Shown one piece after another: positions 29,596 to 33,167 of a stretch of DNA of 64,000 nt. The notes under the pieces are model-generated. The model did no database searches and was not told the origin of the DNA. It was given only the letters and a program-made list of their open reading frames with translations. The stretch is from contig OZ245825.1 in assembly GCA_965228605.1 (NCBI GenBank), forward strand, positions 735,621 to 799,620. The letters run 5' to 3'. Origin of the DNA: Phycisphaerales bacterium (lineage in GTDB: Bacteria > Planctomycetota > Phycisphaerae > Phycisphaerales > UBA1924). Position 1 is the first letter of the stretch, and each line of letters begins with the position of its first letter. A program made the translations under genes and the position numbers.

Positions 29596-29656
29596 TGGCA
29601 CCACTTCGTCTCTCCGTCTCTCCGGTCTCTCCGGTCGCTCCGTCTCCTCCCCATCG

Positions 29657-29731
29657 CGTCAGTAGCTCAGCGGCACCAGAGCGCCGGCACGCCATGTCGG
29701 AGGCCGCGGGTTCGAATCCCGCCTGACGCTT
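29657..29731 (+). tRNA. tRNA-like, probable tRNA-Gly (GCC) with atypical anticodon loop ACGCCAT (C at position 33)
   Basis: Good acceptor GCGTCAG/CTGACGC with U73. T-arm GCGGG-TTCGAAT-CCCGC. Anticodon stem CCGGC/GTCGG, but the loop lacks U33. Confidence 0.55.
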
Positions 29732-29740
29732 TGCGGGTCT

Positions 29741-29813
29741 GGACCGTAGCTCAGTGGCCAGAGCGCCCGCCTGATAAGCGGGAAGTCGGCGGTTCGATCC
29801 CGCCCGGTCCAAT
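29741..29813 (+). tRNA. tRNA-Ile (GAT)
   Basis: Anticodon loop CTGATAA. Acceptor TGGACCG/CGGTCCA (U1-A72). Confidence 0.7.
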
Positions 29814-29819
29814 TCGACA

Positions 29820-29892
29820 GGCCCGTAGCTCAGCAGGCAGAGCGCTCGTCTTACACACGAGAAGTCGTCGGTTCGACCCCGACCGGGCCTCC
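29820..29892 (+). tRNA. tRNA-Val (TAC)
   Basis: Anticodon loop CTTACAC. Acceptor AGGCCCG/CGGGCCT (A1-U72). Confidence 0.75.
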
Positions 29893-29943
29893 TTGTCTCA
29901 TCGTTCACTTTGTCTCTCAGTCTCTTCGTCTCTTCCCACCATG

Positions 29944-30017
29944 GTGATGGTGGCCCAACAGGTCAGGGCACTCGGTTGTGAGCCGAGCGGTGCGGGTTCG
30001 AGTCCCGTCCATCACCC
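29944..30017 (+). tRNA. tRNA-His (GTG) with encoded G-1
   Basis: Extra 5' G pairing with the C73 discriminator. Anticodon loop TTGTGAG. 4-nt variable loop. Confidence 0.8.
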
Positions 30018-30032
30018 TTCACAACTCTCCCG

Positions 30033-30105
30033 GCGGGATGGAGCAGCGGAGTGCTCGCCGGCCTCATAAGCCGGAGGTCGTGGGTTCGAATCCCACTCCC
30101 GCTAC
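30033..30105 (+). tRNA. tRNA-Met (CAT), elongator-type (or tRNA-Ile2 precursor)
   Basis: Anticodon loop CTCATAA. The anticodon stem lacks the three G-C pairs typical of initiators. Confidence 0.7.
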
Positions 30106-30220
30106 TTCGGGCGTCGCAACGGCAGATCGGAAGACCGGCGACGTGGCAAGTCCGGGGCGCAATCGCGCCGGATCTGACGCGTTGCTCTCTGTCGCTCTGC
30201 GGCCGTGCGCGCCCGCCCCA

Positions 30221-30294
30221 GGTGCGGTAGCTCAACAGGTAGAGCGGCAGCGTGAAATGCTGCGTCGTTGGGGGTTCGAACCCCTCCCGCGCCA
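30221..30294 (+). tRNA. tRNA-Phe (GAA)
   Basis: Anticodon loop GTGAAAT. D-arm GCTC-AACAGGTA-GAGC. G3-U70 wobble. Confidence 0.75.
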
Positions 30295-30331
30295 TTCGTT
30301 GGTTCTCTTTCCACTCACGAGGAGTCATCCC

Positions 30332-30529
30332 ATGACCCAGACAAGGCGATTCGTTTCGAGGATGCGCCCCGATGGCACCAATTGGGGCGCATGGGACCGC
30401 AAGCAGAACACATGGTGGGGGCCCACATGCACCGAGCCCCCCGTCGAGCTCGCGGATTACCTGAACAGCGGCGAGCGCGCTCAACGGCGCCTCCAGGTCC
30501 TGGTGCGCCGCTACGCGGTGCGCAAGTGA
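30332..30529 (+). CDS. Small hypothetical protein (65 aa, Trp-rich) embedded in the tRNA array
   Basis: Strong RBS GAGGAG 8 nt upstream of ATG 30332. The ORF ends just before the Ala-like tRNA. Confidence 0.4.
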   Translation: MTQTRRFVSRMRPDGTNWGAWDRKQNTWWGPTCTEPPVELADYLNSGERAQRRLQVLVRRYAVRK

Positions 30530-30573
30530 CCGCCGCAACCCCCGGCGCGCCACCCCACGGTGCGCCGGCCATT

Positions 30574-30644
30574 GGGCGCGACGCCAACGGGGGCGGGCCG
30601 GCCTTGCAAGCCGGTTGCGGAGGGTTCGATCCCCTCCGCGTCCA
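30574..30644 (+). tRNA. tRNA-Ala (TGC)-like with G3:U70 but a shortened/atypical D-arm (possible pseudogene)
   Basis: Acceptor GGGCGCG/CGCGTCC with G3-U70. Anticodon arm CCGGC-CTTGCAA-GCCGG. T-arm GAGGG-TTCGATC-CCCTC. Only 71 nt, and the D region does not fold canonically. Confidence 0.45.
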
Positions 30645-30837
30645 CTTACGGAAGCAGCGAATGGCGGAACAGCGAAGCAGCAAAGCCGAAGGTTCAAGTG
30701 CCCACAGTCGCTGCTTTGTTGCTCCGCTGCTTTGCTGTTCCTCCCAGCCCACTCCGCATCGTCCGGCGGCACGCACGCCTTCGCCACGCGATCAGGCGCG
30801 CGCGTTCCGAGACAACGGGTTCGAGCGGTGCATCGTG

Positions 30838-31000
30838 GAACGCTTGTAGCTCAGTTTGGTAGAGCGACGGATTACACCTCCGTTAGTCGCCGGTTCGAGT
30901 CCGGCCAAGCCCTCTGGATAAGGACGTGACCCACGTCTGGGGTTCGAATCCCCCCGGCTCTGGATAGAGCACCAGTATCCACACTGGAATGTGAGTGAGT
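30838..31000 (+). pseudogene. Cluster of degenerate tRNA-derived segments: a Val(TAC)-like pseudo-tRNA, a 3' two-thirds class-II Ser(GGA)-like fragment, and a D-arm plus anticodon-arm fragment
   Basis: 30841-30910 has D-arm GCTC-AGTTTGGTA-GAGC, loop TTACACC, a T-arm, and only a 5-bp acceptor. 30909-30956 has CTGGATA loop, GACGTG-ACC-CACGTC hairpin, TGGGG-TTCGAAT-CCCC. 30956-30990 has GCTC-TGGATA-GAGC then CCAGT-ATCCACA-CTGG with no T-arm. CTCTGGATA is duplicated. Confidence 0.5.
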
Positions 31001-31421
31001 CGAGGGACACGATCCACGATCGGTCCACGCCCCCTCCGCCGACGCGGCTGCGCCGTGTGCGCACCAGCCGACGCGGAGGAACGGCGCCGCCCGATCCGGC
31101 CCGCGGCCGCGCAGATACCGCGCGAGCACAGCGCCCCGCCCTGCCCCAACTCGTCACCCGCCACCGCGCCGGCTCCCCGAGCCAGCGCGGGGCACGTGCG
31201 ACACGGGCAGGGGCCGACGCTCCCTGCCCGCGCTCAAGCGCCGCCCCGCCGGTGACGCGGGGACCCATCGATGGCTCATCTCTCGGCTCGCATTTCAAAC
31301 GAGTTGGGCGGGCTTCGAGCCCGCCTCCCACTCACCCTGTCTCTCCGTTTCGTCTCGCAGCCCGCCGACGGTCGGCGGGCGCCTCCTCGTCATGTCCCCA
31401 GACCAGCAAGGAAACACACCC

Positions 31422-32579
31422 ATGATGATCCGTACCCGTATCCGTAAGCACGAGGTCGGCCTGTGGTTCCGCCACGACGACTTCCACGACGTCCTCGCCC
31501 CGGGCAAGCACTGGTTCTGGGGCAACATCCTGTCGAGCGATCGCGACCGTGTCGAGATCGTCCGCAAGCTCGCGACCAAGTTCGAGCACGCCATCCTCGA
31601 CCCGTACGTCAAGGATGCACGCCTCGCGCCACTCCTCGAGGTGGTCGACCTGAAGGACGACGAGCGCGCTCTCGTCTGGAAGGATGGCCGACTCGGCTGG
31701 ATCCTCGGCCCGGGCCTGCACGCGTTCTGGAAGGAGCCACGCAAGGTCGAGGTCGAGGTCTTCAACGTCAACGATGCACGCTTCGAGCACAACAAGATCG
31801 AGGCCATCCTCGCCCACCCGGCCGCGTCGCAGCACCTCATGGGCCTGCGTGTCGACCCGCAGGAGCGTGTGCTCCTGTTCATCGACGGCAAGCTCGTTGA
31901 TGAGCTGCAGGCGGGCCTGCACGTGTACTGGAAGGGCGCGGGCAAGATCACCTGGGACTCGATCGACCTGCGTGAGCAGGTCGCCGATGTCTCGGGCCAG
32001 GAGATCATGTCGGGTGACAAGGTCACCCTGCGTGTGAACCTGGTCGTGGCCTACCAGGTGACCGACCCCATGAAGGCGATCTCGACCGTCGGCGACTACG
32101 CCCAGGCCCTGTACCGCGAGGCGCAGCTGGCCCTGCGCGAGGCGATTGGTGCACGCCAGCTCGACCGACTCCTGGCCGACAAGGACGAGCTCGGCGCAGA
32201 GATCGCCAACGCACTCCGTGCCCGCGCAAGCGAGTACGGCGTGACCGTCCGCTCGGTGGGCCTGCGCGACGTCATCCTCCCCGGAGACATGAAGTCGATC
32301 CTGAACGAGGTGATCCTCGCTCAGAAGCAGGCCGAGGCCAACCTGATCCGCCGTCGCGAGGAGACCGCCGCGGCGCGCAGCCAGGCCAACACCGCCAAGC
32401 TGCTCGAGGCGAGCCCCGCGCTGGCCCGCATGAAGGAGCTCGAGGCGCTTCAGGACATCCTGAAGGGCTCGAAGGCGACCTTCGTGCTCGGCCGCGGCGA
32501 CATCATCGAGCAGGTCCGCGCCCTGACCAACGCCGAGCCCGACTCGGCGAAGGACAACGGCGCAACCCGTAACCCCTGA
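31422..32579 (+). CDS. SPFH/band-7 (stomatin/prohibitin-like) domain protein
   Basis: RBS AAGGA upstream of ATG 31422. SPFH core and a C-terminal coiled coil (…LAQKQAEANLIRRREETAAARSQ…). Confidence 0.75.
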   Translation: MMIRTRIRKHEVGLWFRHDDFHDVLAPGKHWFWGNILSSDRDRVEIVRKLATKFEHAILDPYVKDARLAPLLEVVDLKDDERALVWKDGRLGWILGPGLHAFWKEPRKVEVEVFNVNDARFEHNKIEAILAHPAASQHLMGLRVDPQERVLLFIDGKLVDELQAGLHVYWKGAGKITWDSIDLREQVADVSGQEIMSGDKVTLRVNLVVAYQVTDPMKAISTVGDYAQALYREAQLALREAIGARQLDRLLADKDELGAEIANALRARASEYGVTVRSVGLRDVILPGDMKSILNEVILAQKQAEANLIRRREETAAARSQANTAKLLEASPALARMKELEALQDILKGSKATFVLGRGDIIEQVRALTNAEPDSAKDNGATRNP

Positions 32580-32699
32580 CCCCCCGCTCGCGCGACAGCG
32601 CGGGCGCGGGTTTCACACTGCTCAGGGAGGGATCAGGCGCGGTCACTCGACCCTCCCGCCAATCCCTGAGTAAGGCGCGCCTGATCTATGGCGGTGCTT

Positions 32700-32773
32700 G
32701 GACGCGAATGCAAAGTGGTCGAGCAACGTGGCCCTCAACCACGTCCTAGCGGGTTCGAGCCCCGCCGCGTTCA
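32700..32773 (+). tRNA. tRNA-like, probable tRNA-Glu (CTC) with atypical anticodon loop CCCTCAA (C33) and 3-bp D-stem
   Basis: Acceptor GGACGCG/CGCGTTC (G2-U71). Anticodon stem CGTGG/CCACG. T-arm GCGGG-TTCGAGC-CCCGC. Discriminator A. Confidence 0.5.
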
Positions 32774-32837
32774 CTTTCTTGTCACTCACTTCGTCTCTAC
32801 GTCTCTCAGTCTCTTCGTCTCTTCGTCTCTTCTCTTC

Positions 32838-32910
32838 CTGGGTGTAGCTCAGTCGGCAGAGCGCGTGCCTTGGGTGCACGAGGCCGGAGGTTCGAGACCT
32901 TCCACCCAGA
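32838..32910 (+). tRNA. tRNA-Pro (TGG)
   Basis: C1-G72 (typical of bacterial tRNA-Pro). Anticodon loop CTTGGGT with G37. Confidence 0.8.
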
Positions 32911-32946
32911 TTCGTTTGCGCCACTGCTCTCCGAGCAGTTGTCCCC

Positions 32947-33019
32947 CCAGCGGTAGCTCAGCAGGAAGAGCACCCGGTTCTTACCCGGAAACGCGGAGGT
33001 TCGACCCCTCCCCGCTGGA
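32947..33019 (+). tRNA. tRNA-Lys (CTT)
   Basis: Anticodon loop TTCTTAC. Acceptor CCAGCGG/CCGCTGG (C1-G72, unusual for Lys). Confidence 0.65.
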
Positions 33020-33167
33020 CTTCCTTGATCCACTCCGTCTCTCCGTCTCTCCGTCTCTCCGTCTCTTCGTTTCTCCCAGTACCCGATCGGGGTGCGCATC
33101 GCACGGGGGCTTGAGCTGGCAACCCTGGGACTCCCGGCGTGGCGCGTCGCCACGCCCCCGATCACAC

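Follow-up and report, generated by a model that had tools for sequence, protein, structure and literature searches.

Tandem octamer tracts in a tRNA gene array of a Phycisphaerales bacterium: probable copies of a lineage-wide repeat element

Described Families of Short Bacterial Repeats

Three families of bacterial repeats stand near the element treated here, a tandem octamer of the form (YCGTCTCT)n that lies between clustered tRNA genes in a 64-kb stretch of a Phycisphaerales bacterium (GenBank assembly GCA_965228605.1, contig OZ245825.1, positions 735,621 to 799,620; hereafter the window). Rickettsia palindromic elements (RPEs), reportedly described by Ogata et al. in 2000, form palindromic families of 100-150 bp which are dispersed both in intergenic regions and, in frame, in housekeeping genes, where they appear as extra surface segments of the proteins. 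Repetitive extragenic palindromic sequences (REPs), with their composite forms termed bacterial interspersed mosaic elements (BIMEs) and REPINs, are palindromic, carry a GTAG-type head, occur as singlets and inverted doublets at tens to hundreds of copies per genome in a lineage-specific manner and are mobilised by REP-associated tyrosine transposases (RAYTs). Short tandemly repeated repetitive (STRR) sequences of cyanobacteria are lineage-specific families of tandem heptamers in non-coding DNA, which occasionally enter functional genes such as that of RNase P RNA. PMC2858038 is among the papers that mention STRR sequences. In addition, the contingency loci of Haemophilus and Neisseria are phase-variable tandem arrays of simple-sequence units.

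The octamer element combines traits of RPE, REP/REPIN and STRR in one family and is a member of none of the three. Like RPEs, it is found between genes and also in frame within protein genes (mutS, dnaE, asnS, kbl, thiC, mfd, ugd, and others), but RPEs are unique sequences of obligate intracellular Rickettsia and have neither unit slippage nor an anatomy of head plus tandem units; with its tandem octamers and its host in the Planctomycetota, the element is no member of RPE-1 to RPE-8, and the resemblance is functional only. Like REPs and REPINs, it has a conserved head and occurs as singlets and as inverted hairpin doublets (the doublets in relatives, the copies in the window all being singlets), but REPs are palindromic, lack tandem units and are essentially extragenic, whereas the octamer arms are not palindromic (predicted folding energies of 0 to -7 kcal/mol), and no RAYT is known for the element (approximately 20 open reading frames (ORFs) of the window were scanned). 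Like STRR sequences, it consists of lineage-specific short tandem units that sometimes lie inside genes, but the unit is an octamer instead of a heptamer, the hosts are Phycisphaerae instead of heterocystous cyanobacteria, and a head and a polarity of inverted arms are not part of the STRR description. As in contingency loci, the unit length is not a multiple of three and units slip, four perfect 8-bp units lying in the mutS ORF, but the copies are mostly non-coding, no frameshifted allele was seen in mutS searches, and nothing observed points to the on/off switching of a gene. Measured as a simple-sequence repeat, the element has head-to-tail units and whole-unit differences between strains, but its conserved head and fixed arm polarity do not fit a boundary-free, independent origin at each site.

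The closest match in sequence is found in Geobacter metallireducens, in which 'class 2' paired sites of the form (TCTCCGTS[Y])3 lie on opposite strands at variable distance at 21 locations, alongside a sister class of GTTGCTYN octamers (PMC2700814). These sites have the same octamer, rotated, in tandem and paired on opposite strands; they differ in that they occur in another phylum, have just three units and are described as putative regulator sites. Also, the head of the present element, CACYYC, is nearly absent outside Planctomycetota (1 of 95 tracts, G. metallireducens not being among those). No description of the element was found in full-text searches of the literature on tandem, intergenic or palindromic repeats of Phycisphaerae and Planctomycetota.

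For the tRNA genes themselves, the comparison is with long tRNA arrays. A tRNA array unit has been defined as at least 20 tRNA genes at a density of at least 2 per kb (PMC4758250); the array in the window reaches that density, but its 17-18 genes are too few. It resembles long arrays in being dense and confined to one strand and in having some non-canonical members, and a related array (that of L123) includes rtcB. The papers on long arrays describe genes and report no spacer repeats, the word 'spacer' having no occurrence in PMC8421152.

Octamer Tracts in the tRNA Array

The octamer tracts of the window are probably copies of a lineage-wide Phycisphaerae repeat element that resembles REP, RPE and STRR sequences, carried as passengers in the unconstrained gaps of the tRNA array and drifting by slippage. 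The window has a GC content of ~68% and 21 tRNA genes (ARAGORN, Rfam), 17 of which form the array (17 genes in 4.1 kb, 4.1 per kb; 18 with tRNA-Tyr), which also contains two tRNA-like remnants and, as interruptions, a slipin/SPFH gene and an ORF of 65 aa. Octamer tracts lie 3' of 4 of the 17 array tRNA genes (Asp, Val, Glu and Lys), a decayed fifth copy lies nearby, and none of the four tRNA genes outside the cluster has one. The features of the region are as follows.

29146-33241, plus strand: tRNA array, 17 same-strand tRNA genes whose gaps host the repeats (ARAGORN, Rfam)
29602-29650, plus strand: single-arm element after tRNA-Asp; head CACTTC, approximately five units (GTCTCTCC type, with CC linkers), one unit of 9 nt
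29895-29935, plus strand: single-arm element after tRNA-Val; head CACTTT, then GTCTCTCA GTCTCTTC GTCTCTTC
31339-31360, plus strand: decayed remnant of ~2.5 units, after a T-arm-like hairpin (~31300-31335) and before a GC hairpin and the slipin gene
31422-32579, plus strand: slipin/SPFH gene (Pfam Band_7), embedded in the array and a syntenic anchor for related arrays
32787-32835, plus strand: single-arm element after tRNA-Glu; head CACTTC, five units, decayed tail; polymorphic
33031-33076, plus strand: single-arm element after tRNA-Lys; head CACTCC, four perfect CCGTCTCT units at 33035-33066, decayed tail
34872-34955: tRNA-Tyr, an 18th gene beyond the 17 of the array

Tandem Repeats Finder (TRF) calls period-8 arrays at 29607-29646 (4.8 copies, 87% matches), 29895-29935 (5.0 copies, 70%), 32789-32832 (5.5 copies, 86%) and 33033-33076 (5.5 copies, 91%). 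With at most two mismatches, GTCTCTYCGTCTCT occurs 18 times in the window compared with 0.99 +/- 0.96 times in dinucleotide-preserving shuffles, 0 of 100 of which reached 18; all 18 matches are confined to the five array loci (the fifth, at 31339-31352, being weak) and to 54158-54211 on the minus strand, in mutS. A preliminary description of this DNA, made by a model from the letters alone, had reported tandem 8-bp repeats between the tRNA genes, and these are real, TRF arrays being present at four of its five loci. Its coordinates were right at three loci; the four perfect units after tRNA-Lys lie ~18 nt to the right of the 33017-33048 that had been given, and the locus placed at 31345-31370 has just ~2.5 degenerate units, behind a hairpin called by neither ARAGORN nor Rfam. 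The tracts do lie 3' of several tRNA genes as described, but they do not abut them: each begins 7-20 nt past the tRNA 3' end and ends 5-12 nt short of the next tRNA. That they fill the spacers was too strong a statement, as the other spacers are only 6-36 nt long or are filled by other sequence.

The arms are tandem octamers of pyrimidines only, without self-complementarity. All copies in the array are single arms, and the RNA is predicted to be unstructured (0 to -7 kcal/mol): the spacer after tRNA-Asp has a folding energy of -6.9 kcal/mol (z = 0.1), that after tRNA-Glu -0.1 kcal/mol and the tract after tRNA-Lys 0 kcal/mol. The spacers are composed of 35-48% C and 10-17% G, and array spacers are pyrimidine-rich throughout, octamer-free ones included. 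The exact string CACTYCGTCTC, comprising the head and the first unit, occurs in the window only at four tract starts. The copies after tRNA-Val and tRNA-Glu have in common a private variant string, GTCTCTCAGTCTCTTCGTCTCTTC, and the Asp, Lys and mutS copies have in common their CC linkers, which points to copying between sites.

A Repeat Element Family in Phycisphaerae

A collection with one genome per species was scanned for CGTCTCTNCGTCTCTNCGTCTCT (three units), which yielded at least 120 loci; the counts of this section are those among the matches listed. Approximately 49 of the 120 matches come from Phycisphaerales, Phycisphaeraceae, Tepidisphaerales or unclassified Planctomycetota metagenome-assembled genomes (MAGs), with up to four tract-carrying contigs per MAG. 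A tRNA gene lies within 100 nt of the tract in only 1 of ~62 element groups (L077; Aragorn). This multi-contig distribution, together with the single copy near a tRNA gene, indicates that the octamer unit is scattered through genomes of the class and is not tied to tRNA genes. The preliminary description had suggested a sequence-specific expansion or processing signal peculiar to this array, possibly a trailer motif, and had named uniform scattering through the genome as what would speak against it; scattering is what the scan of relatives reveals, and the tempting idea of a processing code for tRNA arrays is thereby removed.

The family is defined by more than its unit. The head CACYYC directly precedes 48 of 68 Planctomycetota tracts but only 1 of 95 tracts with a GTCTCT core from other phyla; three of the four heads in the array agree with it, the fourth being CACTTT. 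The tracts of unrelated phyla have the GTCTCT core in tandem with varying linker bases. In its full form the element reads (GAGACGRA)n-GRAGTG, a loop of 27-57 nt, and CACYYC-(GTCTCTYC)n, that is, two inverted arms with their heads facing the loop, the octamers decaying at the far end of the arm; single arms are also common. The purine arm is 5' in 12 of 12 full hairpins and the reverse order was found in none. RNA folding energies of the 12 composites are -39 to -84 kcal/mol, and three full hairpins folded with their flanks give -60 to -89 kcal/mol (z = -7 to -10).

Single arms are not oriented with respect to neighbouring genes: the downstream neighbour is on the same or the opposite strand in 11 and 12 cases, respectively, and the upstream neighbour in 10 and 9. 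As there is no preferred orientation in coding copies either (see below), a strand-specific RNA role is disfavoured for the family as a whole, and a family-wide function of single arms as CU-rich leaders or Rho utilisation (rut) sites was rejected because their orientation to neighbouring genes is random. A scan of 2.9 million viral contigs for three units gave just 18 matches; the head is present on 2 of 19 tracts from viral contigs, and a phage origin was dropped for want of any link. The notion that Phycisphaerae are uniquely rich in repeats was likewise rejected, since other short tandem repeats are no less frequent in the other high-GC loci of the scan (4.2 versus 3.2 per 10 kb).

The results point to a repeat family spread across the class, in a phylum that is free-living and little studied, with a defined head, a fixed polarity, in-frame copies in core enzymes and a length that varies between strains.

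Strain Variation and Slippage

Assemblies of two strains from other samples match the window at 99% identity, L121 over 1.8 kb and L127 over 11.6 kb (window 21423-33060). Both lack exactly one GTCTCTTC unit of the tract after tRNA-Glu (32809-32816), and tracts therefore slip; the expansion that the preliminary description had suspected is thus borne out as gain and loss of whole units. L127 in addition has a 1-bp deletion at 29624, which turns the 9-nt unit into a regular 8-mer, and a 4-bp TCTC insertion at 31339. The L121 contig terminates inside the tract after tRNA-Lys, an instance of octamer tracts breaking short-read assemblies. Tracts of this kind could be used as markers for strain typing.

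Between the window and L127 there are 95 single-nucleotide polymorphisms (SNPs), all within 28921-33060 (92 in the array and 3 immediately before it); the 7.5 kb upstream is free of them. The array region thus appears, from these alignments, to be a strain-variable or recombined island. The tRNA genes except for the Cys slot have 5 SNPs in 1112 bp, and of the changes in the slipin gene 9 are synonymous and 2 non-synonymous. The stretch 30793-30991, which holds the Cys(ACA) slot and a tRNA remnant behind it, is hypervariable, with ~50 of the 95 SNPs and nine small indels; ARAGORN calls the L127 version 'tRNA-???', and the slot is a pseudogene in decay or else a cassette that was replaced.

In-Frame Copies in Protein Genes and mutS

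Among the matches listed, long ORFs with a high GC content at third codon positions (GC3) contain 21 of the 62 element groups. Ten coding copies were checked with Pfam, and in nine of them domain matches flank or span the insertion. The host genes confirmed in this manner encode UDP-glucose dehydrogenase (ugd), DnaE, a Mur ligase, asparaginyl-tRNA synthetase (asnS), Mfd, ThiC, a DinG-like helicase and a kbl/bioF-type class-I/II aminotransferase, the last with the copy at an identical site in two MAGs. In the tenth, a SpoIIE-family phosphatase of L101, the only domain match is well downstream of the insert. Read in any frame, the unit is free of stop codons, and it is translated as RDEETKRRRDE or SSLRLSVSPSL; the coding copies are purine-sense in 18 cases and pyrimidine-sense in 13, among the matches listed. 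Octamer tracts consequently inflate protein loops in annotation.

Seven full hairpins lie in coding sequence (L018, L075, L087, L093, L100, L101 and L078). The predicted sense-strand fold is weaker than the antisense fold in six of the seven, by 5-17 kcal/mol, and equals it in the seventh; the wobble positions of these hairpins are A-C mismatches on the mRNA. The difference may be a sign that strong folds are selected against in translated RNA.

In the window, the in-frame copy is that of mutS.

51855-54728, plus strand: mutS, 957 aa, host gene of the in-frame copy
54150-54221, minus strand: single-arm element in mutS; head CACTCC (54212-54217), four perfect units (54183-54214, on the plus strand GAGACGGA), decayed tail

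TRF calls an array of the complementary unit at 54155-54215. The copy is in frame, is translated as ...GETEGRGGEETERRRDGETECG... and lies in an insertion of 28 aa located between DEIGRGTS, the Walker B motif, and FATHYHELT, so that the inverted 8-mer is indeed the mutS insertion that the preliminary description had seen. This variable surface loop is 36 aa long in 65 of 120 MutS homologues, 64 aa in the window and 45-80 aa in others. In other Phycisphaerae (P0140, P0122, P0123 and P0172), the same loop (DEIGRGT to ATHY) has independent low-complexity or palindromic inserts with other repeat units, for example ATERRSDE...SVASSLRRSVAS; those of P0140 and P0122 are among the clearly palindromic ones. 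Judging from these alignments, the MutS loop is a putative recurrent landing site for repeats.

The mutS copy, whose unit is not a multiple of 3, raises the question of mutation-rate switching. It is conceivable, though doubtful, that the element is a self-propagating tandem-octamer hairpin which some machinery copies into essential genes and that its copy in mutS could act as a reversible slippage switch of mismatch repair, that is, a mutator toggle. A gain or loss of one unit would shift the frame, because 8 bp is not a multiple of 3. When metagenomes were scanned with the unique flanks as anchors and a gap of variable length between them, no mutS allele with another unit number came up, and the idea of a mutator switch therefore stays speculation. 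The MutS cluster has a single member, and protein searches on MutS returned no close relative. Short MutS fragments on long contigs were considered as loop frameshifts and rejected: the L226 gene is broken up from end to end, probably because the assembly is rich in errors, and the L227 fragment is due to the end of a contig.

tRNA 3' Ends and Related Arrays

None of the 21 tRNA genes of the window encodes CCA, and the base after each called 3' end is T, usually TT. A CCA-less end with a T or TT trailer is thus common to tRNA genes with and without a tract (21 of 21), and looks, as far as sequence can tell, like a general context for RNase Z-type 3' processing. Since this context is present in all 21 regardless of tract, any determinant of 3' processing is more likely to reside there than in the octamers. 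The metallo-beta-lactamase (MBL)-fold gene at 21123-22082 was tried as a gene for RNase Z beside the array and rejected, because it matches just a generic metal-dependent hydrolase model, far below the cutoff; the same gene is an array neighbour also in L124 and L127.

The slipin and MutS of the window have their best named homologues in Phycisphaerae, and slipin homologues of 45-69% identity adjoin tRNA arrays in relatives. The slipin loci of three relatives have 7 (L122), 35 (L123) and 7 tRNA genes (L125, where six adjoin the slipin gene as a cluster), and a metagenome search added 80 slipin loci. Among slipin-side arrays, that of L122 and some of those added by the metagenome search are without tandem repeats, and those of L123, L125, L147, L177 and L187 have different units of 7-10 nt. 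The units of related arrays, such as AAAACAC/GTTTTGT, CACAGAGAA/CTCTGTGAG, TTAGCCG/GCTAATG and CGCAGAGAA/CTCTGCGGC, are unrelated to the octamer and often form hairpins as inverted pairs. The 35-tRNA array of L123 (GCA_029260655.1, JAJDCU010000013; 634-7987) encloses both the slipin gene and rtcB, a gene for RNA ligase; co-regulation of rtcB with a long tRNA array has been described in Anabaena (PMC8421152).

Origin and Possible Roles of the Tracts

If the tracts are copies of a dispersed element, as we think probable, the element would be copied into unconstrained DNA and into tolerant protein loops, and the length of a tract, once placed, would shift by whole units through replication slippage. 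The array would gather copies because it offers many untranslated gaps within a short stretch, and copies would spread locally within it as well, as suggested by the private variant of the Val and Glu copies. Spacer sequence would presumably be cut away during tRNA maturation, by an RNase Z-type cut and RNase P, which are expected for genes without CCA and with trailers that begin with U. The tracts would then be neutral passengers, with no signal for tRNA processing or for the array.

Several points weigh against this. All five array copies run in the same direction as the tRNA genes, and a 60-nt RNA that is C-rich, G-poor and fully unstructured stands out in a genome of 69% GC and could serve some purpose. 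Neither an enzyme nor a mechanism that disperses the element was identified. In relatives, array spacers have 3.4 short tandem repeats per kb compared with 0.3 in other non-coding DNA, a ~12-fold excess (P = 4e-11; with the window excluded, 14 observed versus 1.2 expected). Within the window, 5 of 15 array gaps have a tandem repeat compared with 4 of 46 others (p = 0.03). Besides, the taxonomic proportions of the octamer scan are those of a sample of matches, the 3.9-Mb source genome was read over 64 kb, and gene calls in the orientation and per-gap tests come from a crude GC3 heuristic, which labels 28% of sequence as non-coding, probably too much. Much of the excess per kb can be attributed to the shortness of the gaps. 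Counted per gap, 8 of 74 tRNA-tRNA gaps (11%) have a repeat in relatives compared with 16 of 250 other gaps (6%; odds ratio 1.8, p = 0.21); a clade-wide enrichment of tandem repeats in array spacers was dropped on these figures, and the small per-gap difference in relatives suggests that the array is mainly a place with many gaps.

A role in the RNA of the array is unlikely, but it draws on the same facts. The tracts might be functional spacers, unstructured linkers which insulate the folding of successive tRNAs, give access to RNase P and RNase Z, or load Rho in the manner of a rut site to attenuate transcription. The uniform sense orientation, the near-zero folding energies and the C-rich, G-poor composition are all consistent with such linkers, as are the excess of repeats in the gaps of this array and the intact trailer of 7-20 nt and leader of 5-12 nt that each tract leaves; misfolding between neighbours is conceivable for tRNAs as alike as those for Trp, Gln and Asn, which are 77-80% identical. 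However, only 4 of 17 array tRNA genes are followed by a tract, most copies of the family lie far from tRNA genes and many are within coding genes, and the family has no strand bias relative to transcription. Related arrays are repeat-free or have unrelated units, often hairpins, in the same place, and tract length varies between strains that are 99% identical. The shared orientation can be explained by local copying.

Comparably improbable is that the tracts are ordinary microsatellites, CT-rich tRNA trailers that slip independently in place and have no common origin. Slippage is active, as shown by the polymorphic unit number, the spacers of the array are all pyrimidine-rich, and short-period tandem repeats with a variety of units number 17 in the window, compared with 3.2 +/- 1.6 in shuffles; tracts with a GTCTCT core in unrelated phyla would also fit. 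By contrast, the CACYYC head, present on 48 of 68 tracts of the clade and 1 of 95 elsewhere among the matches listed, and the invariant arm polarity (12 to 0) speak against trailers that slip where they stand. Identical strings of head plus units occur at non-homologous sites, which include conserved protein loops of nine genes, and copies have private variants in common. The head, the polarity, the identical strings and the private variants make it unlikely that the same bounded structure originated independently at dozens of sites, and dispersal by copying would account for them.

Arrays of binding sites for a nucleoid-associated protein or a global regulator, as proposed for G. metallireducens, are less likely still. 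In that organism, paired tandem octamers of this unit sit on opposite strands at 21 locations, for which regulators of the IHF/HU type have been suggested (PMC2700814); the absence of strand bias would fit a role at the DNA level, and an 8-bp period with a conserved head would suit a protein that reads repeats. However, no binding protein is known in either organism, the Geobacter proposal being itself a prediction, copies in the coding loops of dnaE, asnS and mutS are hard to reconcile with regulation, copy number varies freely between strains, and units differ among genomes.

Attachment sites of an integrative element, or scars from the addition of tRNA cassettes, are the least credible origin. 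In their favour, horizontal spread of long tRNA arrays has been reported (PMC8421152), variation at the locus is concentrated in the array (92 of 95 SNPs, none in the 7.5 kb upstream), and one of the tRNA slots has been replaced or has degenerated. Against them, the scan of ~20 neighbouring ORFs gave no integrase, transposase or phage protein, and the array adjoins housekeeping genes (a cardiolipin synthase-like phospholipase D (PLD), the RluA family, mutS); the arrangement of slipin and tRNA array is syntenic across the clade, the tracts bracket neither the array nor cassettes in pairs, copies of the element are frequent at a distance from tRNA genes, and the viral-contig matches are mostly headless. 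The mobile-element signature mentioned in the preliminary description is fair only in the loose sense of a dispersed repeat-element family.

Further Features of the Array and the Window

The tRNA genes for Trp(CCA), Gln(CTG) and Asn(GTT) at 29146-29405 make a tandem repeat with a 93-bp period, the median identity over all pairs being 56%, and look like recent duplicates with changed anticodons. Non-canonical members of the array lie at 33168-33241, 30840-30914 and 32700-32774. The tRNA-Leu(CAG) is 74 nt long and lacks the long variable arm, and L123 also has Leu tRNAs of 74-75 nt; the 'tRNA-Cys' has the anticodon ACA; and tRNA-Glu(CTC) is missed by the Rfam tRNA model. The segment 31270-31335 was considered as a tRNA gene and rejected, as it was detected neither by ARAGORN nor by Rfam at E <= 5.

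Two other octamer families of the window have the architecture of full GTCTC elements. One of them forms a hairpin in the array.

30655-30747, plus strand: hairpin after tRNA-Ala; arms (GCAGCRAA)n / (TTYGCTGC)n, a different octamer; -48 kcal/mol, z = -4.6 (TRF, fold)

The other, with the unit GCCAGATS / SATCTGGC (18797-18843, 19708-19743 and 19805-19863), brackets a gene at 19016-19705; its downstream pair of tracts is inverted around a GC-rich hairpin, the whole having a folding energy of -89 kcal/mol (z = -6.8). At 45412-45723, ~14 tandem copies of the 21-bp GTGGACGGTCGACGACCGACC, which contains GTCGAC, lie in apparently non-coding DNA and resemble iterons or an array of binding sites. A G-rich 17-mer repeat lies directly 3' of tRNA-Arg(TCT) at 5069-5107, and a (GGGGTG)6 tract is located at 48591-48627, ~280 nt upstream of tRNA-Ala(CGC).

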